A stretch of DNA of 64,000 bases, taken from sequence record OR924452; one strand, given 5' to 3'. Within the stretch, counting starts at the first letter, position 1. Every line of letters starts with the position of its first letter. The notes below the pieces were generated by a model. The model was given only the letters and a program-made list of their open reading frames with translations, was not told the origin of the DNA and ran no database searches. This document shows, one piece after another, positions 7,383 through 52,770 of this stretch. The DNA comes from Escherichia phage 241. Both the position numbers and the translations under genes were made by a program.

Positions 7383-7904
7383 TTAATTCCTTACTTTGTC
7401 AGGATTAGATAAGATTTGTTCGTATCCGACTTCTCCTTGATAGTCGAAAACATGCTGAAGAATCGCCATATCGTCTACCATCCGATAAACTTCAATTCCA
7501 GCGTTCATCAATTTTTTGATTCCATCCATAATACGATATGGCTCACGATAATATACTTTATCGATTTTACCGCTATCTATTATCTTTTGAGTGCAATTAG
7601 GGCAAGGACTATGTGTCACAAACATAACCAACCCTGTGAAATCATCTACATTTTCGGGGATACGCATTAGAGCATTTTCCTCCGCATGAACGACACACGG
7701 GTTTGTAACAATTTGCCCGTGTTGTTCCATCTCACAAACATTCGGCATGCCAGGAGGCGTTCCGTTCCATCCTATAGCCACAGGCTGATCAGTTTCAGGG
7801 TTTACAATAACACAACCGACTTGCAGACGCCGAGCATAACTGGTTACACCATATGCTGCAGCTGATCGCATATGAGCAAACATCATACGTGGTTTGATAG
7901 CCAT
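7383..7904 (-). CDS. cd: dCMP deaminase
   Basis: HAEENAL and PCPNC zinc-ligand motifs of cytidine/dCMP deaminase family. Confidence 0.75.
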   Translation of the reverse strand: MAIKPRMMFAHMRSAAAYGVTSYARRLQVGCVIVNPETDQPVAIGWNGTPPGMPNVCEMEQHGQIVTNPCVVHAEENALMRIPENVDDFTGLVMFVTHSPCPNCTQKIIDSGKIDKVYYREPYRIMDGIKKLMNAGIEVYRMVDDMAILQHVFDYQGEVGYEQILSNPDKVRN

Positions 7905-30985: not shown

Positions 30986-31221
30986 CTCGTAATCCCTCCG
31001 GCACAGATAATATTCAGTTCACCGCGACGGAAACCGCCTTGCCCATCGTCCAACTTAGTCAGAAGTGTATGTGCATCTCGAACTTTCTGAGCGAACTCTT
31101 CCGACACCACCAGATGACCCATCAGAGGAGTCTTTTCTTGTTTTGGGGTGGATTCAAAATAGTCACCAAACGTCGCTTCCATATCCAGCACAGACATATC
31201 TTCAATTCGTTGCATTGCCAT
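30982..31221 (-). CDS. hypothetical protein (79 aa)
   Basis: ORF. Confidence 0.35.
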   Translation of the reverse strand: MAMQRIEDMSVLDMEATFGDYFESTPKQEKTPLMGHLVVSEEFAQKVRDAHTLLTKLDDGQGGFRRGELNIICAGGITR

Positions 31222-31240
31222 GATGTATTTCCTTGTAAAA

Positions 31241-31290
31241 GAAAGGGGAACGGGCTAATAATAACCCATTCCCCTTTATTGAAGAACGCA
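31241..31290 (-). terminator. rho-independent terminator preceded by conserved CGTTCTTCAATAAAGGGG motif
   Basis: Hairpin AAAGGGGAA...TTCCCCTTT then CUUUU; second copy of the 28431 element. Confidence 0.4.
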
Positions 31291-31302
31291 ATCGCAGTCA
31301 GA

Positions 31303-31470
31303 TTACTTTTTCTTCAGCTCTTCCAGCTTGGCTTCAATTTGGTCCAGGATTTCTTTACCTTTCTGGACGATGGCTTCACCGTCTTGCGCGTGTTTACGAA
31401 AAACCAGAGCGCCAGCAATGAAACCAACAACCACGCCTGGGAGCGCATACACCAACAGATCTTGTAACAT
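31303..31470 (-). CDS. small membrane protein (55 aa), absent from supplied ORF track
   Basis: Translated by hand: MLQDLLVYALPGVVVGFIAGALVFRKHAQDGEAIVQKGKEILDQIEAKLEELKKK; GAGGA SD 9 nt upstream. Confidence 0.35.
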   Translation of the reverse strand: MLQDLLVYALPGVVVGFIAGALVFRKHAQDGEAIVQKGKEILDQIEAKLEELKKK

Positions 31471-31508
31471 GATTTATATCCTCACTTTTATAAGCAAGGA
31501 TATTTATA

Positions 31509-32744
31509 TCATCGTTTCAACAAAGACATGAGGTTTACACTGGTCGACTTCGGATTGTCCTCTATCTTCCGGACGGGCATTTTCAGATTAGTGTAAACCT
31601 CAGATGGTTCCCAACGCGTACCCTGCTGCAGGTGCCATATATGTAGAGGAACACCCGTCTCAAAGAACACAGGCATCTTCCACTTCTGGACGCCAGGAAC
31701 GTGCCCTGCAGGAGCTTTTTCGCATAACAGGGTATCTGGTAGCCAGAGGGAACGGGCTTCCCATAATGCCTTACAGGAGTACTCAGGCCAGATGCGTTCC
31801 ATGTAGTCGATCTCATCCCAAGTACGCTCGGCATCCCACCCGATGTAACGAGTGTTTTTCAGACGGAAGAATTTCTTAAGCCAACAAGCGCCGGAAGTCT
31901 CAAAGTTCAAACGATTGATGAACGTGATGTGACCAAACTCGGCGACACAATCTTTGAATGCCTGTTCAAGATCAGCCTCAAGGATGTCGCATTCTTCATC
32001 GGTGATAGGACAGCCGTTGATCTTTTTCTTTCCGTGCTTGGTCACCCAGTCGTCACGGTTTGACAAGAATGCCGCGCCGTTGCGGTTGGACTCACTACCA
32101 TCACGGTCACGCAACATGAACCCAGGGACGTCGATCTGATACATGTTGCCGAATACCATGTTCAGGGCTTCCAGGAAGTTCCAGGCGCTCAGGCGACCGA
32201 AGTATTTCCACCCCATAGCCGTGTCCCATAGCTTAACGAATTGATCACTTTGCAGTTTAGTCTCCAACAACGGACGGAAAGCATCCATCTGAGTACGACC
32301 AGCCAGCCAATCAATGTAGGACTGAACACACGGGATCATCTTCGATTTGCGATAGCGGCAATCTGTATCGAATCGCATACGATCGAAGTTCAGGTTATAC
32401 CAATCACAGAATCGCTTGAACTCTTGTGGTGACTGAGGCGGTACAGGAAACTCACTATAAATCGTCCATGGGCCAATCCCATTATAACAACAGCCCCAAA
32501 GGAACGCCATCCAGATCTTGCGCTCGATCTTCTCAAGCTGCGTAATGCCTTCAGTGACTTCAATCGCATAATCCATCAGACGAACTTGTTGGTTGTGTTC
32601 TTCCGTATACGACAGCGCCTCCACCCATGCTTTGAGCAGATACATCCGATTCTCTGGCTTACGATAATCGATTGACAAATCAATTGGGTACTTCCATTCA
32701 GCCGGAGGCGTATAACCTGTCGGCATTTTAGATAGATGCGTCAT
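31509..32744 (-). CDS. hypothetical protein (411 aa); candidate DNA-base-modification enzyme
   Basis: Large Trp/Cys-rich ORF adjacent to P-loop kinase; no motif I can verify. Confidence 0.45.
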   Translation of the reverse strand: MTHLSKMPTGYTPPAEWKYPIDLSIDYRKPENRMYLLKAWVEALSYTEEHNQQVRLMDYAIEVTEGITQLEKIERKIWMAFLWGCCYNGIGPWTIYSEFPVPPQSPQEFKRFCDWYNLNFDRMRFDTDCRYRKSKMIPCVQSYIDWLAGRTQMDAFRPLLETKLQSDQFVKLWDTAMGWKYFGRLSAWNFLEALNMVFGNMYQIDVPGFMLRDRDGSESNRNGAAFLSNRDDWVTKHGKKKINGCPITDEECDILEADLEQAFKDCVAEFGHITFINRLNFETSGACWLKKFFRLKNTRYIGWDAERTWDEIDYMERIWPEYSCKALWEARSLWLPDTLLCEKAPAGHVPGVQKWKMPVFFETGVPLHIWHLQQGTRWEPSEVYTNLKMPVRKIEDNPKSTSVNLMSLLKR

Positions 32745-33102
32745 CCTTCACCTCGGCTTCGAGTTGGATATCTTCAGGGTTTAAAACGGGCTGGCCCAAA
32801 GACCAAATTGGAAGGAACCGACGGTCATTGGATACTACCCAGATTTGCTTGGCGGTTTTCGTTTTTTCAGAAATATAATGCTGGGCATTAACCTGAGTCC
32901 GTGCCAGCCCAATTTGCCGCCATGCACCGAAATCTTTAGAAGATGGATTGGTGTTCAGCTGGAATTGGGGAATGATTTTATTCTGTTCCGGATAATATCG
33001 GACAGCGTTAATCATATTGGCATCGCCACGATAGTCAACAGCAATAGCAATGGCATTGCGTGGAATAAGAATTTTCATTTTAATTCCTTTTGAAACTTTC
33101 AA
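32728..33102 (-). CDS. hypothetical protein (124 aa)
   Basis: ORF. Confidence 0.35.
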   Translation of the reverse strand: MKVSKGIKMKILIPRNAIAIAVDYRGDANMINAVRYYPEQNKIIPQFQLNTNPSSKDFGAWRQIGLARTQVNAQHYISEKTKTAKQIWVVSNDRRFLPIWSLGQPVLNPEDIQLEAEVKDDASI

Positions 33103-33283
33103 TTATGTTGTAAACGAACGGCGTTAATAAAGCAACACCGCCCGAATAATATAACGCGTAAACATTCAATATTTCGGTTGAGTCTAATTCAACGATGCCC
33201 AAATATTTCATAACACCGACAAGCATAGCTGAAAAGCACATCACCAGACCGACGAACACAAAATATTTAGACATCTTTTTCAT
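33080..33283 (-). CDS. small membrane protein (67 aa)
   Basis: Two hydrophobic helices. Confidence 0.35.
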   Translation of the reverse strand: MKKMSKYFVFVGLVMCFSAMLVGVMKYLGIVELDSTEILNVYALYYSGGVALLTPFVYNIIESFKRN

Positions 33284-33286
33284 TAT

Positions 33287-34201
33287 CTACACCTTACGCA
33301 TTAGCCCCAGAAGGGACACGGATGAGGTCTTTGGTTCTTCCTTGGCGACGGCCTTGTTTTTAGTTTTGGATGCCTTCTGCGGCTTCTCAGGCACTCTGTG
33401 AGCCAAAGGATCCTGACCGCCGACTTCACGCGTCATCGGATTGGTTTCGCAATAGCCGTAGAAATCTTTCGACATCAGATTGTTAGCGCGGCAAACTGTG
33501 CCAAGCTGATGATAGATAGCATTACCCACCACCCACAACGGGGCGTCGAACGGCAACATAGCCAATTCGCTATCATTCCCAGTCTTGAATTCTTGGGTGT
33601 TCGTAACCGTTTGGTGGTACAAAACGTCTTGCCCACTGTAATCATCCACGGCAACATTCCAGCCCAGCGCCAGCATTTCAGATTTCGACTTCTCGAACTC
33701 CTTGGAGTAAGATTCGTTGCGTGACCAGCCGGAATCCCCCGCTTCTTTACCAGAGCGTCCACGGATGCGGGCATCGTACTGATAGCGATCAGGATATGCA
33801 AAGTACAGCAGCGCCAAAGAATCAATCGGATAGTTCTTGAACATCCATTCAGGACGCCACTTGTCCGACAGCATCAGGGGTTCGCCCTCACACACCAGGG
33901 TATATCCCTGAGCCAGCCAACCCTTGACGAGGTCGCGAGCAATATCCCCAGAGCCTGTGGCAGCATGAATGGCGTCCATAGAGGTCCAAGACGCCAGGCC
34001 GGATTTATTGGACACTGTGTATTGGCCGACGAAGATTAACTTCAGCTCTTCAAATTTCAGGCCGAAGGGGCGCGTCTTATCCCCAACAGTGTACGACAAT
34101 TCAGTCGGCTTCAGCTTAGTGCGGAGCCACTCGATGAACTGTACGACACGAGTGCCTTTACCCGTGCCGCTGGTTCCTTTGATTACAATGATCTTTGCCA
34201 T
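33287..34201 (-). CDS. P-loop kinase (candidate 5-hydroxymethyl-dU DNA kinase)
   Basis: Walker A motif GTSGTGKGT at N-terminus; specific substrate is inference. Confidence 0.5.
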   Translation of the reverse strand: MAKIIVIKGTSGTGKGTRVVQFIEWLRTKLKPTELSYTVGDKTRPFGLKFEELKLIFVGQYTVSNKSGLASWTSMDAIHAATGSGDIARDLVKGWLAQGYTLVCEGEPLMLSDKWRPEWMFKNYPIDSLALLYFAYPDRYQYDARIRGRSGKEAGDSGWSRNESYSKEFEKSKSEMLALGWNVAVDDYSGQDVLYHQTVTNTQEFKTGNDSELAMLPFDAPLWVVGNAIYHQLGTVCRANNLMSKDFYGYCETNPMTREVGGQDPLAHRVPEKPQKASKTKNKAVAKEEPKTSSVSLLGLMRKV

Positions 34202-34506
34202 TATGCAGCATCCTCAATGCGCCAACTCACTCCACCCAACCAAGGTGCCCAAAACACGGCAACTTGCGGATGACCATTCTCAACAAACTTCACTTTATAC
34301 TGGTCATCAAAGTTATAGAAAATTTCGTCGTCATCAGGTGCCATACCGTTTTCGATCAGAACTCGTTTTAATTCCAACGCTGCGCCAACGGAAGTTGGTG
34401 GATTCTGATTACGGATGAAGTTGTTTACATGGATAATGATACCATCCATATCACTGTCACCGGAACGCTTGTCAGGGCTTTCTACAACTTTATTTTGTTC
34501 TTGCAC
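34201..34506 (-). CDS. hypothetical protein (101 aa)
   Basis: ORF. Confidence 0.35.
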   Translation of the reverse strand: MQEQNKVVESPDKRSGDSDMDGIIIHVNNFIRNQNPPTSVGAALELKRVLIENGMAPDDDEIFYNFDDQYKVKFVENGHPQVAVFWAPWLGGVSWRIEDAA

Positions 34507-34515
34507 GATGTGCTC

Positions 34516-35358
34516 CTATCGGACATATTGATAATGAGAAACCAGGCGATTCACCACTTCATCGAGGTTACGATTCAAGAAGTCAAAGTGGTTTTGGCCT
34601 TCTACATGCTTAATATAAAGCATATCCTCGCAATTCGAAAGATCCAGTTTTTCATAATTGCCCTGAGGGACGAAGATGACGAAGATGTTATTCAGGGCAC
34701 ACGGCTCAACATACTTCGGATTGTCGTCGATCAGGACATCGCCAGCAAGCAGATGCTTTTCATCCGTGCTCACGAACCCATTAATCAACGATTCAAAGTG
34801 ATGGTATATGAACTGACGCTTGCTGCGTTCGTGTTCCGGTTCGCATTTTGTAACTGCCACCATTTCCACTTGCTCAAACTTCTGAAGGAGAGCGGCCTTT
34901 AAATTCGTAAGGAATTCAACAGCCCCTGGCAGTGGTGACATTCTGGAATACAGATCAGGCATACGCCACCAATCCATCGGATCACGTCCTGTTGGCGAAT
35001 CCATCCACTGACCAGCAACGAATACACGGCGCGTTAACCAGGCCGGATGCGCGCGTTCACGCATGAGGATCGCCAGATCACCAGCGTGTGACATATAACA
35101 CTCTTTGGTGATTGGTTGAAATTCAGATGGGTAGTCGTGACATCCCATATTTTCCGCAGCGGCTTTAGAATTAGAAATATTGAACCATTCAACCCACGGC
35201 GATAGGGAATCAACCAGAGTCAAATCCACATCCACCAGAACGCGATATAACCCGCCAATTTTAGAACATGCGTCATACACACCAACGTGATTATTCATCA
35301 GATTTCTCCACATTGTCATAACCCGTTGCGGTGCATTGTTCTTCGGTGCAATCGGCAT
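34516..35358 (-). CDS. HAD-superfamily phosphatase, possible 5'(3')-deoxyribonucleotidase
   Basis: HAD motif I VDVDLT and motif IV GDVLIDD. Confidence 0.45.
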   Translation of the reverse strand: MPIAPKNNAPQRVMTMWRNLMNNHVGVYDACSKIGGLYRVLVDVDLTLVDSLSPWVEWFNISNSKAAAENMGCHDYPSEFQPITKECYMSHAGDLAILMRERAHPAWLTRRVFVAGQWMDSPTGRDPMDWWRMPDLYSRMSPLPGAVEFLTNLKAALLQKFEQVEMVAVTKCEPEHERSKRQFIYHHFESLINGFVSTDEKHLLAGDVLIDDNPKYVEPCALNNIFVIFVPQGNYEKLDLSNCEDMLYIKHVEGQNHFDFLNRNLDEVVNRLVSHYQYVR

Positions 35359-35635
35359 ACAGAACCACAGAAGATTCCTTCACGTAAGTGGTGCAGTGAT
35401 AGGTTTCATCTTCCTGGATGGAATCATCATAATTGCAAACAGTTTGCAACGGACCAGGAGTCGTGTTGTCCAAAGCTGCATGTGCCTTGATGGTGTCTTC
35501 CATCTTATTCACCGCTTGCTGATTGGTGAACGTCGGCGCATCGAGGTCAACAGTAGACGCAACGTCCAGAAGGGTAGAGCATGCAGTGGTAGAGAAAGCC
35601 AGAGCACACACCAGAAGAATCTTATTGAGTTTCAT
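35291..35635 (-). CDS. putative lipoprotein (signal peptide with lipobox-like Cys)
   Basis: MKLNKILLVCALAFSTTAC N-terminus; start set at ATG 35635. Confidence 0.35.
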   Translation of the reverse strand: MKLNKILLVCALAFSTTACSTLLDVASTVDLDAPTFTNQQAVNKMEDTIKAHAALDNTTPGPLQTVCNYDDSIQEDETYHCTTYVKESSVVLYADCTEEQCTATGYDNVEKSDE

Positions 35636-35695
35636 AACAATACCTGTTGTCAAAGGGATAACAGGGGGAATTATATCCCCCTTTGTTTTATTGAA

Positions 35696-38692
35696 TCAAC
35701 CTTTCTTGCCCATCATGGACAACAGATTAACTCGACGTTTGTGAGACCAACCAACCACGTCTAGAATAGACTGAATCGGCTCTATGAAGGTCTTTTCAAA
35801 CGTGGTGTGGTAATCTACCCACTTATCCAGCCCCAACTCCGGAGGGAGGAAGTCAGGGAAGGCTATGCGGTCGTTCCCCACAGGGTTCCCAGGTTTCAGG
35901 TTAATGATTTTAACCTTATCGCCAGATTCTATCGGCGGGAGACCGAGGTCTTCATGCTTGTCTATCAGCTTGTTGTACATAATACAAGCCTTGGCAGCAA
36001 AGTGTGTGCCACTGATATAATTTCCGTTGCCGTCTAACCACTTCTCAATATCACTAACGCCAGAGGCTTGAGCAATATCATCCACGGTTAATTCCATATA
36101 TTCCTTCTTATAACCCGCGATCAATTCCTGAACTTCAGCCTCCGTCCCCAGAAGAACTTTCTCATAGCATTTAACCAGACGCTCACGACACCATTCCGGC
36201 GTTGTAGATTTACGCGCTTCCAGACCTTTGAATTTTATCTTTGGCTTCTCATACTTGATGCCTTCGCTATCGTATACCGCCATGCAATACATCTTCTTGG
36301 CTCGCCATACAGCAGACGATGCGATGACCTCACGTTCCCAGACCATGCGCTGCTCAAACCCGTTCATGGTATTACATAACAACTGCGCCCATTCGCTGGT
36401 TTTTGGCTGGTAATTCTCTTTGATCCATTGGTCAATGTTATCAACGAGTTTGTGATGGTCCTTTTCTTCAGGCCACAATTGCTTGACCAGGCGTTCAATG
36501 CAAATGTAGTTGGAGTCAGTATCACCCGCGATAACAAAATCCTGACCAGTAGTGCCGCAAAGTTTGTTCAGATAATCATCGGTGTGGCGTTTGTTCCATT
36601 TGTTGATCAGCTGGCCGGAAGTGGTGATTGCTTCAGCGATGTTGATGTTGAAGTATTCTTTAAACCAGACGTTGGAGATTGCGCCATAACCTGCGTTCAT
36701 CAAGATCTTCAGACCTTGTTGTAACGTGTCTTGAGCAACCCCCAGATCTTCCCACTTGTGCATGACTTCAGTCAGGTGATCAAGATCGATGTGCTTGTGT
36801 TCTTCATACCATTCAGGATCGTAGAAACGAGACTTCATGGCGGACTCAAGGTGGAAATCACCTTTAGACATTTCCTTACACCAACCAGCCCATTGCTCAT
36901 ACTTCAGGCCAGTTGCTTTCTCTCCTTTACGGTCAGCGTATATGCCTCGCATAATTTCGGAAAGGAAGGACATCTTCTCATTACTGAAGAACTGAACGTT
37001 CGGGGTAAACGAAACGTTATATCGGCGTAGTGTTTCAAAATGGAATTCGCCCAGCGCGACCAATTCATCAACAACTTGTATGCGTTCATCAATAGCACGC
37101 TGCAACTTGTCGTGAAGATTTTTGAGATGACGACGTTTATTCATCGGCGTTGTCATATCATTCATCGCTTTGGTCAATTCCTCACACATAGCCTCAATAA
37201 TATCACGGCGTGTGTGCTTATCAGAAACGATAGTCTCTGGACCAAGGTTGTATTGCTGTATGATGTGGGGATACAGGGAGTTTAAGTCCTCAGAGAAGAC
37301 CCAGAAATATATCCCTGGTGCAACCTCCATGACATATGCGCCTTCAAAATCTGTTGGTCCATCATAGACGCGCTGGATTTTCGGGACAATCCCCTTCTCA
37401 TAAAGACGATAATAGCACATCGCCAGCCACGGTGCTACAGTGCCGAGACCGTCTTCATAGTTGGATTTAGTGCGATAAGCCAATACAAACATCAGCTGTA
37501 TCAAACGCAGTTTTTGTTCTAAGCGCCACACCAGCTTGACGTCTTTGATACCATATCGCGTATGCTTGCAATAATCATTGAAATAAAGGTCATACAATGA
37601 TTTGCTTTCACTATAATCCAACTTCTTCTCACCGAGTTCACAATAAGCGATCCAGTCCAGTGAGTATTTTTCGCGGGTGGTGTAAGTGTGTTTCTTGTAC
37701 ACTTGCATGTAGTCCATCATTGGACAACCCACAAACTGATAAGACGTGACGTCGCCTTTACGGTCTTTGATGAAACGTTTCTTCAGTTTACCCCAAGGAC
37801 TGAGACGCTGGGCTTCGGATTCACCAAGAACCTGCGTAATTCGTTCAACCAAATAGGGACTATCGAACGTTTCAATGTTCCACCCCGTCCAACCGTCAAA
37901 TTGACGCTGCGACCAGTAGTTAAGGAATGAACGCAACAGATCCTGCTCGGTGACGAACTCCATATACTCAACCTGAAGCCCACCGATTTCAGGATCGTTC
38001 TCATCATACCTGAACTTCGCGCGATCCTTGGAACACGGCATGCCCCAGACATAGAATTTATTGGTATTCATATCTTGGAGCTGTATCAGCGTAATAGGGA
38101 ACGCCGCATTCATGTTCTGTGTGATTTTACCGTTACTGTCAATTATAGGGAATTGGTCAGTCACGTTGTTGGAAATAAAGGAACCAGGGAAATGCTCCCG
38201 AACGAAATCATGGTTGGCCAGTACTTGCTTATGGAAACGACGAACCCGCGCCTCGCTGCCTTTAAACGTGTGAGATTCAATCGTTGCGTGCGGGAATGGA
38301 CCTTTAGTCATTTCTCCGTCACGCCAACCAGCCGAGAACACTTCGATATCCACGTTGGCGATGTGGATATTTGAATAATCAGGTGTGATCATCCCAGGAA
38401 AACTATGGGCGATGAATTGATATGCATAATCCGTTTGTCCATACACCGCAGCCCCTTCGACCTCCTTGTACTCCTCAAGATAGTTGTCAGCGTCGCGCAT
38501 TGATGCAAACTTTTTAGACACCAACGGTTCGTTGAGGAGGCCAATCTTTTCAACTTTGGAATAATCAGCTGTGGGTAAATACAAGGTGGGTTCGAATTTC
38601 TTACGCAACATGCGGCGATTGCCGTTGTCGTCTGCGATACGAATCAGAAGGTCGTTACCCTGTCGGGCAACGTTCGTATAGAAAACAGTCAT
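35696..38692 (-). CDS. 43: DNA polymerase, family B (T4 gp43-like)
   Basis: N-terminus MTVFYTNVARQG parallels T4 gp43; B-family pol and exonuclease motifs (e.g. YGDTDS); start set at ATG 38692 with GGAG SD. Confidence 0.85.
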   Translation of the reverse strand: MTVFYTNVARQGNDLLIRIADDNGNRRMLRKKFEPTLYLPTADYSKVEKIGLLNEPLVSKKFASMRDADNYLEEYKEVEGAAVYGQTDYAYQFIAHSFPGMITPDYSNIHIANVDIEVFSAGWRDGEMTKGPFPHATIESHTFKGSEARVRRFHKQVLANHDFVREHFPGSFISNNVTDQFPIIDSNGKITQNMNAAFPITLIQLQDMNTNKFYVWGMPCSKDRAKFRYDENDPEIGGLQVEYMEFVTEQDLLRSFLNYWSQRQFDGWTGWNIETFDSPYLVERITQVLGESEAQRLSPWGKLKKRFIKDRKGDVTSYQFVGCPMMDYMQVYKKHTYTTREKYSLDWIAYCELGEKKLDYSESKSLYDLYFNDYCKHTRYGIKDVKLVWRLEQKLRLIQLMFVLAYRTKSNYEDGLGTVAPWLAMCYYRLYEKGIVPKIQRVYDGPTDFEGAYVMEVAPGIYFWVFSEDLNSLYPHIIQQYNLGPETIVSDKHTRRDIIEAMCEELTKAMNDMTTPMNKRRHLKNLHDKLQRAIDERIQVVDELVALGEFHFETLRRYNVSFTPNVQFFSNEKMSFLSEIMRGIYADRKGEKATGLKYEQWAGWCKEMSKGDFHLESAMKSRFYDPEWYEEHKHIDLDHLTEVMHKWEDLGVAQDTLQQGLKILMNAGYGAISNVWFKEYFNINIAEAITTSGQLINKWNKRHTDDYLNKLCGTTGQDFVIAGDTDSNYICIERLVKQLWPEEKDHHKLVDNIDQWIKENYQPKTSEWAQLLCNTMNGFEQRMVWEREVIASSAVWRAKKMYCMAVYDSEGIKYEKPKIKFKGLEARKSTTPEWCRERLVKCYEKVLLGTEAEVQELIAGYKKEYMELTVDDIAQASGVSDIEKWLDGNGNYISGTHFAAKACIMYNKLIDKHEDLGLPPIESGDKVKIINLKPGNPVGNDRIAFPDFLPPELGLDKWVDYHTTFEKTFIEPIQSILDVVGWSHKRRVNLLSMMGKKG

Positions 38693-38699
38693 TGTTTGT

Positions 38700-38740
38700 C
38701 TCCGGTTAACCGTGCCGTCAGCACGTCCCCGTAATTTAAC
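38700..38740 (-). promoter_or_regulatory. 5' leader hairpins (CGUGC-ugacg-GCACG and palindrome CGGUUAACCG) next to polymerase SD; candidate translational operator
   Basis: Hairpin lies just 5' of SD in polymerase leader, analogous to the T4 gene 43 autoregulatory operator. Confidence 0.3.
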
Positions 38741-38771
38741 CGAGGAACGTTCAATGACCAAGGAGTTTAAA

Positions 38772-39344
38772 ATGGCAATCCCCTTTGTGAGCATGATTCC
38801 AGGGGCGCTAAAGCAACTCTGGAATCTTGGGACTGATTTGGTGCAATATAAGCGGGAAATTGTTCAGGCTAAACACGATGTTAAACTGGAGGCAATAAAG
38901 TCTTCTTCAGAATGGGAACTTTCTAAGATTACCGAAGTCGGCGGATCTTGGAAAGATGAATTCTGGACAATCGTTTTGGCTGTTCCCGCTATCCTTGTTA
39001 TGATCGCTCCGGTTGTGGAACTTCTAATGTTCCCCACCGAGTATCATAAAGGGGATTTCATCAAAGCAGTAATTGATGGTATGCAAGCCCTTGAAACAGC
39101 GCCTGATTGGTATACTGCTTCGCTATTGACAGCAATTAGTGCATCATTCGGTATCAAGGGGTACAACCATTACAAAAGCAATAGCCGGAAGGCGCAAGCT
39201 GTGGATGCTCTCAAACAGTTTGGGGTCAAAGTGGTTAACAAAGATCCCACTGTTGTTACTCAGTCGGGTTCTCCCGATCTTGAGTCTGCTCCCCCAGCTG
39301 GGTCTACTGCGACCTCTGGTGCGTGGCCTGATCTGAAGAAATAA
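38772..39344 (+). CDS. membrane protein (190 aa)
   Basis: AAGGAG SD 7 nt before ATG 38772; central transmembrane helix. Confidence 0.4.
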   Translation: MAIPFVSMIPGALKQLWNLGTDLVQYKREIVQAKHDVKLEAIKSSSEWELSKITEVGGSWKDEFWTIVLAVPAILVMIAPVVELLMFPTEYHKGDFIKAVIDGMQALETAPDWYTASLLTAISASFGIKGYNHYKSNSRKAQAVDALKQFGVKVVNKDPTVVTQSGSPDLESAPPAGSTATSGAWPDLKK

Positions 39345-39348
39345 GTTC

Positions 39349-39376
39349 AAGGGGAGGAAACTCCCCTTTCTTTTGG
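39349..39376 (+). terminator. rho-independent terminator (GGGGAG-gaaa-CTCCCC + TTTCTTTT)
   Basis: Hairpin and T-run directly after stop at 39344. Confidence 0.45.
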
Positions 39377-39385
39377 TGTTAGGGA

Positions 39386-39598
39386 ATGAAAGTGGTAAAC
39401 AAGAGATTGCTCGTCACCCAAGGCGGGGCGACGATAGTACGTGGACGGATATATGAACAAACCAAGCTGGGTGATCATAAGACTCGTCTGACGGTTAAAG
39501 CACCCGACGGTGGTTGGCCAACAAAGGTGATTGTCCCAGACGGCCTCATAGAACGAGGGACGGCGACGTATAAGGGTGCAGAGTTCAAAATTTATTAA
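39386..39598 (+). CDS. hypothetical protein (70 aa)
   Basis: ORF; start uncertain. Confidence 0.3.
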   Translation: MKVVNKRLLVTQGGATIVRGRIYEQTKLGDHKTRLTVKAPDGGWPTKVIVPDGLIERGTATYKGAEFKIY

Positions 39599-39693
39599 AA
39601 TATTTATTGAATAAAGTTTACTTCTTCAATAACTGGCGTATACTTCTAATTGTAGTACGAACAAACAACAATCTGAAGAGAAGGAAATACATC

Positions 39694-40251
39694 ATGGCAA
39701 TCGAAATTATCGCTCAATCAAAATCAGGCAAGACTGTAATGTACGGCACTGAAGAAGGCCGCTGCATCATCAACTACGGCACTATCACTGGCGAGTCTCC
39801 AGAGAAAGGTGGTCGCTATCTGGTTGAGTACGGTTCACGCCTCCTGATGGTAAGCAAAGTCGATGGTCGTGAAATCATGATTCCTCGTAAAGAATACTTT
39901 GACTCACGCTCTGCCGCGATGACTTTCTTCCTCTTCCAGAAACGCCACGAACTCTTCGTTGAAGCGAAAGACGCAGGTCTGGACGACGCGACGGCTGAGC
40001 TGATTGCCGAAGGTAAAATGACTCTCGAAGCTGCTCTGGGAGACATGGATTGCGAAGCCGAAGCACATTATATTGAATATTCCGCATATCAGAACGAATG
40101 TGAAGATGATCCGGAAGACGACGGATTCGACCCTGACCTCCACGGCGGCGAAGACGATAACACCCCTTCCTTAGAAGTTCTGATGGCTGGCGGCCAGGCC
40201 GCTTGGGAATGGCAGAACGAGAAGAACGCCTGGCTGGATTCCCGTATCTAA
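39694..40251 (+). CDS. hypothetical protein with highly acidic C-terminus (185 aa)
   Basis: Start set at ATG 39694 (MAIEIIAQSK) with GAAGAGAAGGA SD. Confidence 0.4.
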   Translation: MAIEIIAQSKSGKTVMYGTEEGRCIINYGTITGESPEKGGRYLVEYGSRLLMVSKVDGREIMIPRKEYFDSRSAAMTFFLFQKRHELFVEAKDAGLDDATAELIAEGKMTLEAALGDMDCEAEAHYIEYSAYQNECEDDPEDDGFDPDLHGGEDDNTPSLEVLMAGGQAAWEWQNEKNAWLDSRI

Positions 40252-40256
40252 TTGAC

Positions 40257-40285
40257 TGAAGCCCCTTCGGGGGCTTACTTTGAAC
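40257..40285 (+). terminator. terminator-like hairpin AGCCCC-ttcg-GGGGCT
   Basis: Stem-loop after stop at 40251. Confidence 0.4.
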
Positions 40286-40299
40286 TGAAGGACTATATC

Positions 40300-40452
40300 A
40301 TGATTTTAATCTTATGGTTTGTATTCACATTTCTGGCCATGGCCGACATCGGCAAATATCACGTTCTCCCAAGCGACCTGACCGTCCTACTATACGGCAT
40401 AGTTTCGTTTGTGCTGGGTTCCTTGCGCGCCCATATGAGGACTATATCATGA
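40300..40452 (+). CDS. small membrane protein (50 aa)
   Basis: Start at ATG 40300; hydrophobic helix ILILWFVFTFLAMA; initiation region AGGACTATATCATG duplicated at 40435. Confidence 0.3.
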   Translation: MILILWFVFTFLAMADIGKYHVLPSDLTVLLYGIVSFVLGSLRAHMRTIS

Positions 40453-40994
40453 GCAACCCAAAAACTCCTGTCCGTATCGCTGTTGAGCCTCTGCTGGTTG
40501 ATGCTGAGAATGCTGCTGAGCAGTACGCGAACAAAGTCATCAAGAACATAATGGACGATCTGGCCTCCAACGGCTGGGACGTCGAGAAGTGCGCTCCGTG
40601 GCCGTCTTCGGTTGGCGTCAAGTTTGGTGATCCAGATTACCAACGAATGAAATCAAAACACGCGCTCTACCGTTCTTTAACCCAGGCAGTGAATCCTTCT
40701 TACACACCTGGGAAGCCGGATATTGTCAAAGCTGATCCTGAGCGCCATGCTCTGTTTGTCAAGGAAGCACGTCGAAACGCCGCGATGCAGTATGAGTCTT
40801 TCATTTGTAAACTGGAAAACAAAATTGGTGGTCACAGCGCGGCTGTACTGAATGGTTCCCATGTATGGGGTTATTCAATCCTGACCGTGACTACACCAGA
40901 GGGTATCGAGCGCTGGAAGACTCAGACGATCATCAATGTGTCCAAGCTGGGCAAACTCTTTAACCAATATCCAACGAGGAAGGTGAAGGAGTAA
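40449..40994 (+). CDS. hypothetical protein (181 aa)
   Basis: Start at ATG 40449 overlapping upstream stop (ATGA). Confidence 0.4.
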   Translation: MSNPKTPVRIAVEPLLVDAENAAEQYANKVIKNIMDDLASNGWDVEKCAPWPSSVGVKFGDPDYQRMKSKHALYRSLTQAVNPSYTPGKPDIVKADPERHALFVKEARRNAAMQYESFICKLENKIGGHSAAVLNGSHVWGYSILTVTTPEGIERWKTQTIINVSKLGKLFNQYPTRKVKE

Positions 40995-41029
40995 AATTAG
41001 AACAACAAAGGGGCTTAATGCCCCTTTGT

Positions 41030-41488
41030 TTATTTCCCATCCCAAAAGTCGTCTTCATCGTCTACTTCATCAAACGCAGAATCCAATTCTGCGTCAGAGT
41101 ACTCTGGTAGACGACCATTCTGTTTCAGATATTCAATCTCGTCATCTTCCAATTGAAGATCCGTTGCTATAAACAGTGCTCCGGTCTCTTCATCATGTTC
41201 AATGCTATAAGACGTATATTCAGAACCTTGAACTGTAATGATGATAGATGTTGGATCTTCTGGATCCACGTGAGCTTCAAACGGGATACCGTCAATTGGG
41301 GCGTCTTCTAAGAATGTTGCAAGGGCTACGGCAGCGCGGACAACATCCGTGCCCTGTACCGATGCATAAATTTCTTCTGCACCCGTTTCCCCGCGCTCAA
41401 AGAATTCAATCGTAGTTCCGTCTTGAACCCCAGTCCAGATAGGCATATCTGCTGGTGTATCGGCTTCAAATAATTTTGAAATTGGCAT
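41030..41488 (-). CDS. hypothetical acidic protein (152 aa)
   Basis: ORF, Asp/Glu-rich. Confidence 0.4.
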   Translation of the reverse strand: MPISKLFEADTPADMPIWTGVQDGTTIEFFERGETGAEEIYASVQGTDVVRAAVALATFLEDAPIDGIPFEAHVDPEDPTSIIITVQGSEYTSYSIEHDEETGALFIATDLQLEDDEIEYLKQNGRLPEYSDAELDSAFDEVDDEDDFWDGK

Positions 41489-41523
41489 GTTCGTTTCCTC
41501 TATGGATAAACCTTATGGGATAT

Positions 41524-41973
41524 TTAGGCTTCTCTCTTCGCCAGCCCTGGTTTGAATACCACCATTTCTTCTACGTTATTGGCACTCATAGAGGCTATAG
41601 AATCGAACCCTTTGTTGACAAGTTCTTTCACATTATCATGTATCTTACCAGGCTTTATCCCCAACTCTCGCATTTTATTTTCCCACACCGAAACGTTATT
41701 AGAATCTATCACCAGAGTCTTCTTGGCCTTAACACGAAATGCCATGACAACAGGTTCACCAGATTGACGATAGCGAACGGCGTTTTCCGCGTAGATCTGC
41801 GCTTTTTCTGGATCCCCTGTCAGGTAAAATCCAGCACCCATCGTACCAGAGTCAGTCTGGCCAAATTTTTCAAAATCAAAGACGTCGAATTCAACATTCG
41901 ACCCATGATATAAAACAATATCCGTAAAATCGGGCAATGTTGATTCACGATAGAATTCTAGGAAGGTTTTCAT
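41524..41973 (-). CDS. hypothetical protein (149 aa); possible H-Y-E class ADP-ribosyltransferase-like fold
   Basis: YHGS ... GAGFY ... EEMVVF pattern resembles PARP/Tpt1/DarT-type motifs; preceded by the conserved late leader element. Confidence 0.4.
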   Translation of the reverse strand: MKTFLEFYRESTLPDFTDIVLYHGSNVEFDVFDFEKFGQTDSGTMGAGFYLTGDPEKAQIYAENAVRYRQSGEPVVMAFRVKAKKTLVIDSNNVSVWENKMRELGIKPGKIHDNVKELVNKGFDSIASMSANNVEEMVVFKPGLAKREA

Positions 41974-42007
41974 AGATACCCCACACTTGCTGTATGGGGT
42001 ATTTAGG
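41974..42007 (-). promoter_or_regulatory. conserved late leader element: CTAAATA + hairpin ATACCCCA...TGGGGTAT, then ATG
   Basis: Fourth copy (minus strand) of the element found upstream of three tail spike genes. Confidence 0.45.
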
Positions 42008-42012
42008 AGGGA

Positions 42013-43206
42013 TCAATCAGGGGTAAACTCGTTCACAGGAACTTGTTCCGGCATAGACAATTCGGGGCATGCTGCCTTCATTGGCTCAATATACGGCTTG
42101 CTACCAACAATCCAGAACAGAGCGTTTTCGTTGAGCAGTTCTGGCTTATGCTGTTGGATCCAGGTCATGACCTTGCCTTCATAGCGAGGATGCAACTCAA
42201 TATCGCCCCACTGGTAATCCATCAGGTCATTATAGCGAACCCAATTCGTTGTATGCAAATCCCAATGGTGTACTGCAAAGCGTGGGAGCGTTATCTCCGG
42301 CTCTCCCTTCTCGCGGATACCCATCAGGAGGCCAGCCAGCGAAACGCTCTTAGAGGCATGCTGAAGATCCTTCTTGCCGTACACATAATCTGGGTTGTCA
42401 TGATAGCAACGAGTAAAATCCGTTATGTGTGGAAGATTAGCTTGTTTTCCAATAATACGCAAACGGCTTTCAATAAAGTCCAGACGGTTGGGACCAATCC
42501 CGATCAGATATACATTTTTCAGATTCGGTTTCGGGTGCATAGCCAGCCCTGTCAAAATGCTGGTACAAGAATTACATGAACCAGCAGGAATGATCAGATC
42601 TGTGATATGGTCCGGAATGTTAGCAACCTGCTCGCCGCCCAGCATATGAAATCCTGCAATCCTCTCCGGAGAATGCAACGTATGATCCAGAGTGATCCCA
42701 TACTCTAGATAATATGCTTTTGGATTCTGCTGCTCAATCAATTTCTTGCAGCGCGGCTGGATAGTGCTGTTGTAACCCGAACCGACAAAGTTGAATTCGC
42801 TGCCGAACCATGCACTCATCTTAACCATATCGTGGTTCATACAGGTGGTTGGTTTGGTCGCGCCCAGGACTGTAGTTGTCTTGCCGCCGAAATGCCGTGA
42901 GACTGCTGTCGCCATAGGGGACTGCGGACTACCAACGACAGTACCATGGATAAGGTCTGGGGAGCCTCCGGCCTTGAGATGCTCAACCATGAGCCAGATG
43001 GCCTGACGAAGTTTACTGCCGTTGATGCCCTGCTTGCCATCTGTATAGTTGGACAGCGGCGCGAAGTAATCTTCACGCTTGAACCAGACCTGTTGATTGG
43101 TTTCAGGGTTGGCAACGAGTTCGCACGGGGTGTGCTTGTAGAGGTAGTCTTCCCAGTGGACCAGGTTGCGGTCGAGGGAAAGTGTATCGAAGATGGACTT
43201 GTTCAT
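42013..43206 (-). CDS. PLP-dependent enzyme, fold type II (Trp synthase beta / ACC deaminase-like)
   Basis: FKREDY...GSKLRQ (PLP-lysine region) and GTVVGSPQSP...TAVSRHFGG glycine loop match ACC deaminase/D-Cys desulfhydrase family. Confidence 0.55.
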   Translation of the reverse strand: MNKSIFDTLSLDRNLVHWEDYLYKHTPCELVANPETNQQVWFKREDYFAPLSNYTDGKQGINGSKLRQAIWLMVEHLKAGGSPDLIHGTVVGSPQSPMATAVSRHFGGKTTTVLGATKPTTCMNHDMVKMSAWFGSEFNFVGSGYNSTIQPRCKKLIEQQNPKAYYLEYGITLDHTLHSPERIAGFHMLGGEQVANIPDHITDLIIPAGSCNSCTSILTGLAMHPKPNLKNVYLIGIGPNRLDFIESRLRIIGKQANLPHITDFTRCYHDNPDYVYGKKDLQHASKSVSLAGLLMGIREKGEPEITLPRFAVHHWDLHTTNWVRYNDLMDYQWGDIELHPRYEGKVMTWIQQHKPELLNENALFWIVGSKPYIEPMKAACPELSMPEQVPVNEFTPD

Positions 43207-43275
43207 TCTATTTCTCCTGTAGACATTGGCTTATCATAGCGTATCTACAGGAGTATAGAAAAGGAGAATCTCGGG

Positions 43276-43944
43276 TTACTTGGTCAGAAAATCCATCAGG
43301 CGGCGGAAAAACGATTTGCGTTCTACTGGTTTCTTAGATTCAGGGACCGGAATAGAACTATCATATTTAACAACCGGAGCACCCTGATCGTTCAGAACAC
43401 GACTGGCTGGTGGAGTCGGCTTCAAAGATTTGATCGCCTGATTCAGATCGGAATTGTCCACAACACTCGCTTCTTCAGCCACAGAAACACACGGCTTGAT
43501 TAAAACAGATTTCTTAGACTGCTCATACTGATGAGCGATATCTAGATATTTCTTGCGCTCAGCGTAGAAATCGACGTTCTTAACTTTACGGCGGCGAGCA
43601 GTAGAACTCTCTTCACCATAAAAGTCATATCCATTTTTGAACATCCAATTCACTGCTTGCTCAAATGAATTGAATACCATATACAGGCCGCGCCGCCCGT
43701 TGACCATATCGTCTTCGCTGGAATAACCGATGAACACCGCTTGGCCTTTCTTGTTCAGATCAAATGGGGTGCAGACGCCCGTATCATCTAGGGAACGCGG
43801 TGCGAGGTGCCCGTCTCTGTAAATGTAAGCCGGATACAAGAACTCATTCAGAGTGCGCTTGTTGCCTTTATATGTGTACAGACGAGCAAATGGAGGCAGA
43901 TCACAAACAACATCATTGTAATCCCAGATTGTTACATTGCGCAT
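43276..43944 (-). CDS. hypothetical protein (222 aa)
   Basis: ORF. Confidence 0.4.
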   Translation of the reverse strand: MRNVTIWDYNDVVCDLPPFARLYTYKGNKRTLNEFLYPAYIYRDGHLAPRSLDDTGVCTPFDLNKKGQAVFIGYSSEDDMVNGRRGLYMVFNSFEQAVNWMFKNGYDFYGEESSTARRRKVKNVDFYAERKKYLDIAHQYEQSKKSVLIKPCVSVAEEASVVDNSDLNQAIKSLKPTPPASRVLNDQGAPVVKYDSSIPVPESKKPVERKSFFRRLMDFLTK

Positions 43945-44015
43945 GGTGTTTCCTCAAATCAATGAAGGGGTTTATAAACGGTTAAATTTTAAACCCCTTA
44001 TTGTCATTGAACAAA

Positions 44016-44990: not shown

Positions 44991-45071
44991 TTAACTTCCT
45001 TAACCCCAGATTGTTATGAAGTCGGCATGCACACCTTCTTCATCTTCAGGAAGTCACACTCATTGTTCTGG

Positions 45072-45144
45072 TTGCTTCAACTGGATTCGAACCAGTGACC
45101 TCTCCCTTATCAGGGGAACGCTCTACCTACTGAGCTATGAAGCA
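45072..45144 (-). tRNA. tRNA-Ile (anticodon GAU)
   Basis: Hand-folded cloverleaf: 7-bp acceptor, D-arm GCUC/GAGC, anticodon loop CUGAUAA, T-arm ACUGG-UUCGAAU-CCAGU; 73 nt. Confidence 0.7.
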
Positions 45145-45210
45145 ATTTGGTGCCCGTTAGAGGAGTTGAACCTCAGCACTCTGGTGATCAACCCAGAGAG
45201 TCGCGCCTCA
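45145..45210 (-). ncRNA. tRNA-like 3' module (T-arm-like + acceptor-like + CCA) abutting tRNA-Ile
   Basis: Sequence ...GAGGUUCAACUCCUCUAACGGGCACCA ends 3 nt before tRNA-Ile 5' end; only distant 5' partner (GCCCGUC, ~145 nt upstream). Confidence 0.2.
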
Positions 45211-45498
45211 TCTATTTGATGGTCAATTTGGGTCTTGCAAAACCTTTACTGACCGTCTACAAACAGACTGCTTGACCGAGCGTAATTTGGACGGGCTTCA
45301 CACCCGATTGTGCATTTGATCTGCCGTAGCCCAACTCCCCGCGCCGAAGCGCCGATTGGTTAACTGGCACCAGTGCCTTCTGGTTCGATCTCCTGTAACT
45401 TTACAGGCTTTGCGCCCGACCATTTCTGGAAGTTGAGGCATCGTTTCCGATGTGGAGTCCCCTCATTTTACACAGCTGGCTGCAACGCTTACCGTGTT

Positions 45499-45582
45499 TG
45501 GTGTGAGTGGATGGATTCGAACCACCGCGCTGTTACGGGGAGATTTACAGTCTCCTGCATTCGACCGCTCTGCCACACTCAC
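45499..45582 (-). tRNA. tRNA-Tyr (anticodon GUA), type II with long variable arm, encoded CCA
   Basis: Hand-folded: acceptor GUGAGUG/CACUCAC, 3-bp D-stem, anticodon loop CUGUAAA, 12-nt variable region, T-arm GGUGG-UUCGAAU-CCAUC. Confidence 0.65.
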
Positions 45583-45589
45583 ATTTAGT

Positions 45590-45659
45590 CTACCGCCGCG
45601 TGCTGGGCCACGCTCGAGGACATCGGCCATCCTTCCTCAGCTAATCCACGCGGCGGTAG
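45590..45659. repeat. 13-bp perfect inverted repeat (CTACCGCCGCGTG / CACGCGGCGGTAG), 44-nt spacer
   Basis: Read directly; lies immediately 5' of tRNA-Tyr on the transcribed strand. Confidence 0.5.
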
Positions 45660-45826
45660 ATTTGGATCAGAGTGTACGGTGTAGCATTCCGCAGGGGTGC
45701 ACCTACTGTAGCCCTTCCACTCTGAAATTGGTGGGTGTTACTTCCGTCGGGTTCAGATTCCGTTCGGCTATTGGACTTCGCTTCAAGAGCTTGTCGTTCG
45801 CGTACTTCGTGCTTACTTGCTTTCGT

Positions 45827-46261
45827 TCACACCCATTGTCTGGTACGTATTTCTTGAATAACTTCGTCAAACAAGAAATCCTTTAACCATTTTACTCCCA
45901 CCACCTGATTATTCTTAGGCGGCGTTACCCTCAATCTAACATTCTTTGGATATTGTTTAGGATCCACCAAGACTTCTGTGCAAGTCTCAGGATGATAGCC
46001 ATAATACAAGTCAACAACATCCGAATGGTAAACCGATTTACATTTACCATTGTAATAATTCGTGGAACTGGCATCAAGAATAAAGGATGCCTTATCTTGT
46101 AAAAGGGTTTTGCATTGTACTTTGTACAAGCGCCCTTCTATATCCAAAACAAAATCATACGGCGCATTATCACCGAAAGGTTGAGAAACTGTTAGCCCCT
46201 GCTCAGTGCATTTGAACAAGAACCTAGTCTCACCTATCATACCCCGTTGTTTCGAATTCAA
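45827..46261 (-). CDS. hypothetical protein (144 aa) within tRNA island; possible nuclease-like
   Basis: ORF between tRNA-Tyr and tRNA-Met; PYDFVLD...E.RLYKVQCK loosely resembles a PD-(D/E)xK motif. Confidence 0.35.
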   Translation of the reverse strand: MNSKQRGMIGETRFLFKCTEQGLTVSQPFGDNAPYDFVLDIEGRLYKVQCKTLLQDKASFILDASSTNYYNGKCKSVYHSDVVDLYYGYHPETCTEVLVDPKQYPKNVRLRVTPPKNNQVVGVKWLKDFLFDEVIQEIRTRQWV

Positions 46262-46273
46262 ATTATTCCGCCT

Positions 46274-46498: not shown

Positions 46499-46591
46499 CT
46501 GGTTTATTTAGGTGCTCCCGAGGCGGTATTTTAATCCCGCGATCCCATCTCGCCTGTCGTAGACCGGAGCATGCTGACAGTCCAACATATT

Positions 46592-50101: not shown

Positions 50102-50108
50102 CTAAATA
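50102..50108 (+). promoter_or_regulatory. late-promoter-like CTAAATA motif ~40 nt upstream of gp6-like gene
   Basis: Same heptamer as in the tail spike leaders. Confidence 0.3.
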
Positions 50109-50148
50109 TCTTCAACACCATATTCAAACTCAGGTGATGGAGATTATC

Positions 50149-52768: not shown

Positions 52769-52770
52769 AA

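Follow-up and report, generated by a model that had tools for sequence, protein, structure and literature searches.

The closest described system is the thymidine hypermodification pathway of phage ViI, in which purified proteins convert 5-hmdU DNA into 5-PmdU, then O-serinyl-T and finally 5-NeOmdU (Lee et al. 2018 PNAS, PMC5889632; Lee et al. 2021 NAR, PMC8989533). Purified gp243 turned 5-hmdU DNA into 5-PmdU, and purified gp226 is a PLP decarboxylase that acts on O-serinyl-T DNA. For gp247, the serine donor was confirmed with isotope-labelled serine and synthetic standards, and its Cys-to-Ala and Glu-to-Ala mutants were inactive (PMC8989533 for all three proteins). Two ViI kinases are active in vitro, and in ViI, CBA120, CBA6 and Vibrio phage 1.255.O about 40% of T is replaced by a 301-Da nucleoside (PMC5889632). 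More distant points of comparison are PaMx11 gp46 (PUGT), a glycine:DNA transferase with a crystal structure and Cys247 as catalytic residue (PMC11472151), and M6 gp51. In PaMx11 and M6 the nucleophile is the alpha-amine of glycine, giving an N-C bond, whereas ViI-type enzymes use the serine hydroxyl and form an O-C bond. The later tailoring differs as well, by an FAD lyase and an acetyltransferase or by radical SAM and PLP enzymes. The gp226-type enzymes decarboxylate an amino acid that is attached to a base in DNA, whereas members of the ACC deaminase family deaminate or ring-open free metabolites.

The window analysed here, which is the whole stretch of 64,000 nucleotides, contains a region (positions 31000-44000) with 98.6% DNA identity to Salmonella phage Vi01. 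This 13-kb stretch occurs at >80% coverage in 178 phage records, and by sequence similarity the window is assigned to the genome of a Kuttervirus (ViI-like Ackermannviridae). Three minus-strand ORFs, at 31509..32744 (411 aa), 33287..34201 (304 aa) and 42013..43206 (397 aa), had been located exactly in a preliminary description and proposed as a thymidine-hypermodification gene set. They can be regarded as real genes and not chance ORFs, because the 13-kb stretch is conserved and each ORF aligns from end to end with a phage protein family. The proposed function is borne out by matches to the HMUD2 and ADDT families and by 99%, 99.5% and 97% identity to ViI gp243, gp247 and gp226. These gp numbers of the pathway papers correspond to orf00243, orf00247 and orf00226 in the Vi01 annotation, and the accessions YP_004327565, YP_004327568 and YP_004327553 agree with Table 1 of PMC8989533. 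On this basis the region very probably encodes the post-replicative half of a ViI-type pathway, whose mechanism was shown with the ViI orthologues and is transferred to the present phage through 97-99.5% identity. The three-gene system is thus already known; its recognition is a correct rediscovery of the published ViI pathway and adds no new candidate.

[quoted passage not shown] Its product matches the Pfam family HMUD2 (PF18747) with an E-value of 2e-168 and 559.5 bits (cutoff 25), residues 1-303 covering profile positions 1-298 of 298, and is identical to gp243 (Vi01_196 / YP_004327565) at 301 of 304 positions (99%). The Walker A motif recognised in the preliminary description is the P-loop GTSGTGKGT at residues 9-17, which is of the NMP-kinase type GxxGxGKGT. 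Because of the near-identity to gp243, the enzyme would be expected to phosphorylate, at the expense of ATP, the 5-hydroxymethyl group of 5-hmdU in DNA to yield 5-PmdU; as two ViI kinases are active in vitro, this one may not be essential in vivo. A quite different reading is suggested by database labels: this protein would be a guanylate kinase, as Vi01_196 is called in RefSeq and phrog_4409 likewise, and the PLP enzyme would be a threonine ammonia-lyase or an ACC deaminase; the substrates of both would be free metabolites, with no link to DNA modification. However, the dedicated HMUD2 profile matches the kinase over its full length (559 bits), no guanylate-kinase family was found at the E-value threshold of 0.01 of the Pfam scan, and the ViI proteins, 97-99% identical, act on DNA-borne substrates. 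Together with the properties of the PLP enzyme discussed below, this makes a purely metabolic role extremely unlikely. In phmmer searches with the kinase, the transferase and the PLP enzyme singly, no matches were obtained among PDB sequences.

The 411-aa protein (31509..32744, minus strand) had been regarded as uncharacterised, which proved wrong. It belongs to the named and biochemically studied ADDT family (aGPT-Pplase clade 2; Pfam PF18724) and is the putative serine:DNA transferase orthologous to ViI gp247 (Vi01_199 / YP_004327568), with which it shares 409 of 411 residues (99.5%). The ADDT match extends over residues 49-292 (E-value 5.2e-58, 196.9 bits, cutoff 26.2), and PF18724 is present in all 59 of the 59 homologues found. 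The profile searches that had been suggested as a check thus place the kinase in HMUD2 and the 411-aa protein in ADDT/aGPT-Pplase2, both above cutoff. Two residues, E282 and C287, are invariant across 31 sequences. PaMx11 gp46, which matches Pfam ADDT with an E-value of 1.6e-27, and M6 gp51 have this family in common with the 411-aa protein. The gp46 and 411-aa sequences are very divergent, but an E-T-x-x-C catalytic motif is aligned and the proposed covalent Cys-C6 mechanism is identical. In hhalign, E282 and C287 fall on E243 and C247 of gp46 in a weak, local alignment of the ADDT profile (16 columns, probability 1%), which is supportive, although no proof, because it falls on the published catalytic Cys; the catalytic cysteines of both proteins lie at about ADDT profile position 223. 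The ADDT profile had no match in the PDB. The enzyme probably exchanges the phosphate of 5-PmdU for the side-chain oxygen of L-serine to form O-serinyl-thymidine, L-serine being the predicted donor because of the 409/411 identity to gp247.

The third protein (42013..43206, minus strand) is 97% identical to ViI gp226 (Vi01_182 / YP_004327553) and is assigned as a PLP-dependent fold-type-II decarboxylase by this identity, its fold and its active-site lysine. The Pfam family PALP (PF00291) was hit by the single sequence with 31.1 bits (E-value 2e-07), under the gathering cutoff of 35. Therefore, the fold-type-II assignment leans on the profile, the structure and the lysine. A profile of 47 sequences matches ACC deaminase 1rqx (E-value 4.6e-6). 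K65, the Schiff-base lysine, corresponds to K92 of gp226 (an offset of 27 residues) and is invariant in 47 homologues. In the alignment with ACC deaminase it falls on the lysine of GGNK, the G-x-N-G-S-K-x-R motif matching GGNKTRK in that enzyme. An AF2 model (pLDDT 91.4, pTM 0.90) shows a confident fold from residue 1, with a low-confidence insert around residues 280-310. Foldseek searches with this model returned 4d92, 1tzk and 1j0a as best matches (probability 1.00), the top matches being D-cysteine desulfhydrase and ACC deaminase (E-value 3e-11). The modelled structure thus places the enzyme in the ACC-deaminase/D-cysteine-desulfhydrase type of fold-type-II proteins, as anticipated in the preliminary description. 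These nearest solved structures would fit the metabolic reading outlined above, and so would the UniRef cluster names, "threonine ammonia lyase" or "threonine deaminase". However, the resemblance to the metabolic enzymes (1rqx, 4d92, 1j0a) is at fold level only, with TM values of 0.55-0.68 and 13-17% identity, and the phage protein has additional N- and C-terminal elements. Moreover, one distant phage has its PLP gene side by side with an ADDT gene. A role in DNA modification remains the preferred reading, and because of the 97% identity to gp226 the 397-aa protein would be expected to remove CO2 from O-serinyl-T in DNA, yielding 5-NeOmdU.

The shorter N-terminus of this enzyme is the only difference from the ViI pathway proteins, apart from a few conservative substitutions; the P-loop and the catalytic Lys, Cys and Glu are conserved. 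Relative to gp226 (424 aa), the alignment contains a 27-residue gap near the N-terminus, the first ~16 residues are divergent (residues 3-16 differ), and three substitutions occur near residues 53-56. These deviations from the assayed protein could mean that the same enzymes lead to another end product, if the 397-aa allele were inactive or altered and the pathway stopped at O-serinyl-T or proceeded to another derivative. This is very improbable, since the core from residue 17 on is nearly identical to that of ViI, the model is confident from the first residue, and N-terminal length varies widely in the family, whose proteins range from 347 to 529 aa. Furthermore, the identical short allele is common among Kutterviruses: at least 62 phage records carry it, those of ECML-4, Maynard, Mutine, Matapan and Hercules among them. 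All 39 of 39 invariant family positions, including K65, are also present, by construction as the present sequence served as the alignment reference. Truncation or a pseudogene was likewise considered as the origin of the short N-terminus and rejected, given a start codon and ribosome-binding site as in ViI and the wide distribution of the allele.

The three genes do not form a single cluster and are held in two transcription blocks. Their arrangement is that of ViI/Vi01, where polymerase, DUF7292, NT5C-like gene, DUF7254, kinase, two small ORFs and transferase follow each other and the PLP gene lies in a separate unit. The present phage differs from ViI in the flanking tRNA and tail-spike regions. 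The placement of the set next to the polymerase, as first described, applies to the kinase; the PLP gene lies about 7.8 kb from the kinase gene in a minus-strand unit of its own (43944 to 41030), separated from the kinase by the polymerase and a block on the plus strand (38712-40994). This unit ends at a strong intrinsic-terminator-like hairpin (41004..41030, minus strand) with an 11-bp stem, 6 GC pairs and a T-rich tail. A promoter scan yielded 22 sites versus 20.2 in shuffled controls and thus no excess over controls. The other neighbours named in the preliminary description were partly correct: the HAD/NT5C-like gene and the polymerase do adjoin the kinase, but the dCMP deaminase (7383..7904, minus strand), which is inside the window, is about 24 kb away from this gene set. 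This deaminase, an orthologue of GUERRERO_29, is identified by Pfam dCMP_cyt_deam_1 (E-value 2e-17) and the zinc motifs HAEENA...PCPNC, and probably supplies dUMP, the precursor of 5-hmdUMP.

All neighbouring genes of the polymerase-to-transferase block are on the minus strand. Between transferase and kinase lie a conserved small ORF of about 116-124 aa (32728..33102; phrog_4163, E-value 7e-69; orthologue of Vi01_198), whose product has no Pfam match, and a gene for a largely hydrophobic protein of 67 aa (33080..33283; phrog_4514, E-value 3e-35; orthologue of Vi01_197). On the other side, a DUF7254 protein (34201..34506; PF23912, E-value 3e-47) is encoded so closely that its stop codon and the start codon of the kinase share one base, at 34201. 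In some records the DUF7254 protein is labelled "thioredoxin". A function as reductant for the conversion of 5-hmdU to T was considered for it and dropped, because its translation contains no cysteine. The family-B DNA polymerase (35696..38794; Pfam DNA_pol_B_exo1 and DNA_pol_B) is the first gene of the co-directional block. A DNA polymerase is annotated in Vi01 and Guerrero, and its start codon is chosen differently among the annotated records. The scheme for phiW-14/SP10 (PMC5889632) suggests, by analogy, that the enzyme may incorporate 5-hmdUTP at replication.

The gene at 34516..35358 (minus strand) encodes a HAD-superfamily 5'(3')-deoxyribonucleotidase-like protein, according to a Pfam NT5C match above cutoff (E-value 6.9e-08) and the HAD motif VDVDLTLVDS. 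It may help to adjust the pyrimidine pool, for instance as a nucleotidase acting on dTMP. A homologue (22% identity, E-value 4e-8) occupies the same place between PolB and the HMUD2 kinases on a distant contig (L008), where PolB, HAD, two HMUD2 genes, ADDT, HMUDK_hel, TS and dUTPase follow each other. The ADDT protein of this contig is 50% identical, and the order PolB, HAD, HMUD2, ADDT is kept, with the remaining pathway genes rearranged around it. On a second distant contig (L012), a homologue of the PLP gene directly abuts an ADDT gene. The gene linkage on both contigs lends independent support to the pathway assignment. The HAD protein alone recurs, no homologues of DUF7254, phrog_4163, phrog_4514 or the ART-like gene having been found in L008 or L012. 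It is conceivable, but rather unlikely, that the HAD/NT5C-like gene is a functional but so far overlooked component of the hypermodification module; DUF7292, DUF7254, phrog_4163 and phrog_4514 might be too. The HAD/NT5C-like gene is not mentioned in the ViI papers searched. If it did belong to the module, its possible roles would include that of a nucleotidase for the dTMP/dUMP pool or a 5-PmdU phosphatase, and either could help to set the ratio of 5-NeOmdU to unmodified T at about 40:60.

According to the proposed scheme, 5-hmdU would be incorporated into the phage DNA during replication, its precursor being formed by the dCMP deaminase and a thymidylate-synthase-like dUMP hydroxymethyltransferase encoded outside the window. 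The kinase would then move the gamma-phosphate of ATP onto the 5-hydroxymethyl group, resulting in 5-PmdU in DNA. The ADDT enzyme would attack C6 of the base with its conserved C287, whereupon the phosphate would depart and leave an exocyclic methylene, to which the side-chain hydroxyl of free L-serine would add to form 5-O-serinyl-thymidine. [quoted passage not shown] The genes for the dUMP hydroxymethyltransferase (TS homologue), kinase 1 (HMUD1; gp67 orthologue) and aGPT-Pplase1 (HMUDK_hel; gp160 orthologue) are absent within the window, which reaches no further than Guerrero position 26.3 kb in one direction and the tail-spike region in the other. The genome of phage Guerrero has these three genes at 36.1-37.8 kb and 86.6-87.8 kb. 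Since relatives carry them outside the reach of the window, the complete pathway, including the three proteins, is probably encoded in this genome. The final base, previously held to be unpredictable, can be predicted because of the near-identity to the ViI proteins: the virion DNA of the present phage almost certainly contains 5-NeOmdU, with an expected load of about 40% of T positions and many restriction endonucleases blocked.

No long-standing question is made newly testable by this result. Its value is practical, because 5-NeOmdU affects how the DNA responds to restriction digestion, host nucleases and sequencing chemistry, and this is relevant where Kutterviruses are employed for phage therapy and biocontrol. 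The labels of these genes in public records are poor ("hypothetical", "guanylate kinase", "homing endonuclease", "threonine ammonia lyase"), so that a reader working from the sequence alone could reasonably call them unknown.

The three genes that the preliminary description had read as a candidate thymidine hypermodification set are genuine, not chance, reading frames. All lie on the minus strand at exactly the coordinates given earlier, and they code for proteins of 411 (31509..32744), 304 (33287..34201), and 397 amino acids (42013..43206). Their interpretation as hypermodification enzymes is supported by orthology to the enzymes of Salmonella phage ViI (Vi01), by membership in the HMUD2 and ADDT families, and by the PLP fold and catalytic residues, all of which are established in the window. 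The pathway had already been published and reconstituted biochemically, so the trio is a rediscovery, and its residual novelty is small. In RefSeq, the notes on the Vi01 orthologues read orf00247 (YP_004327568), orf00243 (YP_004327565), and orf00226 (YP_004327553), and the same accessions are listed by Lee et al. (2021, Table 1) as the serine:DNA transferase gp247, the 5-hmdU DNA kinase gp243, and the PLP-dependent decarboxylase gp226 (PMC8989533). For ViI, experiments have established what each of the three enzymes does and which base results. There, 5-hmdU in DNA is converted to 5-PmdU by gp243, and also by gp67; purified gp247 joins L-serine via its side-chain oxygen to yield O-serinyl-T (O-SerT), an O-linkage that was checked with 13C/15N-labelled serine and a synthetic N-linked standard (PMC8989533). 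Purified gp226, which is yellow and shows PLP-like absorbance, decarboxylates O-SerT to a 301-Da nucleoside (PMC8989533). This nucleoside, 5-NeOmdU, is found in place of about 40% of T in ViI, CBA120, CBA6, and the distant Vibrio phage 1.255.O (PMC5889632), and a 2024 review describes the modification genes as conserved across the Ackermannviridae (PMC11721090). The final base had been considered unpredictable, but near-identity to ViI predicts 5-(2-aminoethoxy)methyl-2'-deoxyuridine, and the DNA of phage 241 thus probably carries 5-NeOmdU.

Profile searches of the kind proposed earlier assigned both the kinase and the 411-aa protein to the expected families. The kinase is identical to ViI gp243 at 301 of 304 positions, contains the P-loop GTSGTGKGT, and matches Pfam PF18747 (HMUD2, '5-hmdU DNA kinase 2') over its whole length (E 2e-168). 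Its public labels differ, being 'guanylate kinase' in both RefSeq Vi01 and phrog_4409 and 'putative homing endonuclease' in the annotated Kuttervirus relative Guerrero. The 411-aa protein, formerly called unknown, falls in Pfam PF18724 (ADDT, 'amino acid:DNA transferase', E 5.2e-58), a family previously named aGPT-Pplase clade 2, and its orthologue is the serine:DNA transferase gp247 (409/411 residues identical). The activity of gp247 is lost on mutation of a conserved cysteine or a neighbouring glutamate (PMC8989533); the equivalent residue types in the window protein, E282 and C287, are retained without exception in 31 homologues with identities down to 39%. PaMx11 gp46, a member of the same Pfam family, has a solved structure with Cys247 as the proposed nucleophile (PMC11472151). 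In hhalign its E243 and C247 lie opposite E282 and C287, an alignment that is local and weak and therefore supportive only. In PHROGs v4, both the transferase and the decarboxylase are listed as of unknown function.

The PLP protein scored 31.1 bits against Pfam PALP, under the cutoff of 35, and was therefore analyzed further by alignment, profile comparison, structure prediction, and Foldseek. K65 is invariant in an alignment of 47 homologue sequences, and a PDB search with the profile derived from that alignment picked up D-cysteine desulfhydrase as well as ACC deaminase (1rqx, E 4.6e-6). The AlphaFold model (pLDDT 91.4, pTM 0.90) is confident from the first residues, and its best Foldseek matches are D-cysteine desulfhydrase, ACC deaminase, and 1j0a, a homologue of ACC deaminase (E about 1e-10 to 1e-11, TM 0.55-0.68). 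Since these lines of evidence agree, the motif-based assignment as an ACC-deaminase-like enzyme of fold type II was correct. The protein is 97% identical to ViI gp226, whose predicted Schiff-base lysine is K92 (PMC8989533); after an offset of 27 residues this position corresponds to K65. The offset reflects the only difference from ViI, a shorter decarboxylase N-terminus. The start codon and ribosome-binding site are the same, but 27 residues after position 2 are absent, and the proteins diverge in the first ~16 residues and at positions ~53-56. At the nucleotide level, the 5' end of the gene (43130-43235) has a 41-nt segment versus 122 nt in ViI and Guerrero. This is not a lesion, because N-terminal length varies throughout the decarboxylase family, the model is confident from its start, and at least 62 phage records carry this short allele unchanged, among them ECML-4, Maynard, Mutine, Mooltan, Matapan, and Hercules. 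In Kutterviruses, the decarboxylase gene circulates in two N-terminal forms.

The set of genes does not form one tight cluster. The kinase and transferase do lie next to the DNA polymerase (35696..38794, minus strand), as described earlier, in a tightly packed minus-strand block that comprises the polymerase, DUF7292, an NT5C-like HAD protein that may shape the nucleotide pool, DUF7254, the kinase, a 67-aa hydrophobic ORF, an ORF of ~120 aa, and the transferase. Some adjacent genes overlap, and the DUF7254 stop and kinase start share one base. DUF7254 is labelled 'putative thioredoxin' in public records; the protein contains no cysteine. The PLP gene, however, belongs to a second minus-strand unit (43944 to 41030) and lies at a distance of ~7.8 kb from the kinase. 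This unit ends at a strong terminator-like hairpin (41030-41004) and is separated from the polymerase by a plus-strand block (38712-40994). Likewise, the dCMP deaminase is real (7383..7904, minus strand; Pfam E 2e-17) but ~24 kb away rather than beside the set. Mapping onto Guerrero located none of the remaining pathway genes in the window. In Guerrero, a thymidylate-synthase-like gene, kinase 1 (HMUDK_HMUD1, E 1.6e-116), a dNMP kinase, and a dUTPase are found at 35-38 kb, and the gp160 orthologue (Pfam HMUDK_hel, also named aGPT-Pplase1) at 86.6 kb; the missing upstream genes are thus likely to be present elsewhere in the phage 241 genome.

Gene order in distant genomes provides independent support. 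In L008, a 141-kb metagenomic contig with a 50% identical ADDT, PolB is followed in order by a HAD homologue, a pair of HMUD2 kinases, the ADDT, HMUDK_hel, a homologue of thymidylate synthase, and a dUTPase, and in the 183-kb phage contig L012 a 44% identical PLP homologue directly adjoins the ADDT gene. Gene neighbourhoods thus tie both the kinase and the PLP enzyme to the transferase, as the ViI experiments do. In the same part of L012 (8001-13213), a gene for a 713-aa family-2 glycosyltransferase follows two genes after this pair, and this system may be a further-decorated thymidine modification. In the marine siphovirus-like contigs L010 (8587-11077) and L011 (256-2746), a 42% identical ADDT is encoded two genes downstream of a Tet/JBP dioxygenase gene, and none of the called genes matched an HMUD kinase family, which suggests that the activated base is reached by a different route.

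A megablast search of window positions 31000-44000 against 50,697 phage records matched 281 records, 178 of them with at least 80% query coverage. The best matches were Kuttervirus (Ackermannviridae) genomes such as vB_Hercules_SET (98.9%), the type phage Vi01 (98.6%), and ECML-4 (98.5%); no record searched was identical to the whole window, itself a Kuttervirus. At the tail-spike end, PS5, Matapan, and Mooltan are nearest (~98%). The tail-fibre and tail-spike region (50000-64000) shows 89% identity or no match to ViI and Guerrero, as expected of host-range modules in Ackermannviridae.

Several other minus-strand genes deserve mention. ORFs of 134 aa (7904-8308) and 155 aa (9921-10388), neither of them matched in the Pfam search, fill insertions of ~410 and ~450 bp absent from Guerrero, and one directly adjoins the dCMP deaminase. 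A 220-aa protein (10725-11387), labelled 'alpha hydrolase' in Guerrero, carries SGGVDST, a PP-loop motif, and its N-terminal part is weakly matched by QueC, ThiI, and the tRNA methyltransferase HUP domain. Directly downstream of the PLP gene in the same transcription unit, an ORF (41524-41973) labelled 'N-acetyltransferase' in Guerrero has Pfam matches to ART-PolyVal (E 8e-11), an ADP-ribosyltransferase family of polyvalent proteins, and to DUF3990; in L008 and L012, no homologue was found beside the PLP or ADDT genes. On the upstream side of the decarboxylase, a 222-aa ORF (43276-43944) scored 21.5 bits against NDUS4 (complex I Fe-S protein 4; cutoff 31.9), a match that is probably without meaning and the likely source of the Guerrero label 'ETC complex I subunit'. 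Finally, the tRNA genes in 45069-46667 (minus strand) are Ile(GAT), Tyr(GTA), and Met(CAT), versus Leu, Ser, Asn, Trp, and Met in the syntenic region of Guerrero, and megablast matches to ViI and Guerrero are interrupted between 45102 and 46274; this region is therefore a variable tRNA cassette.
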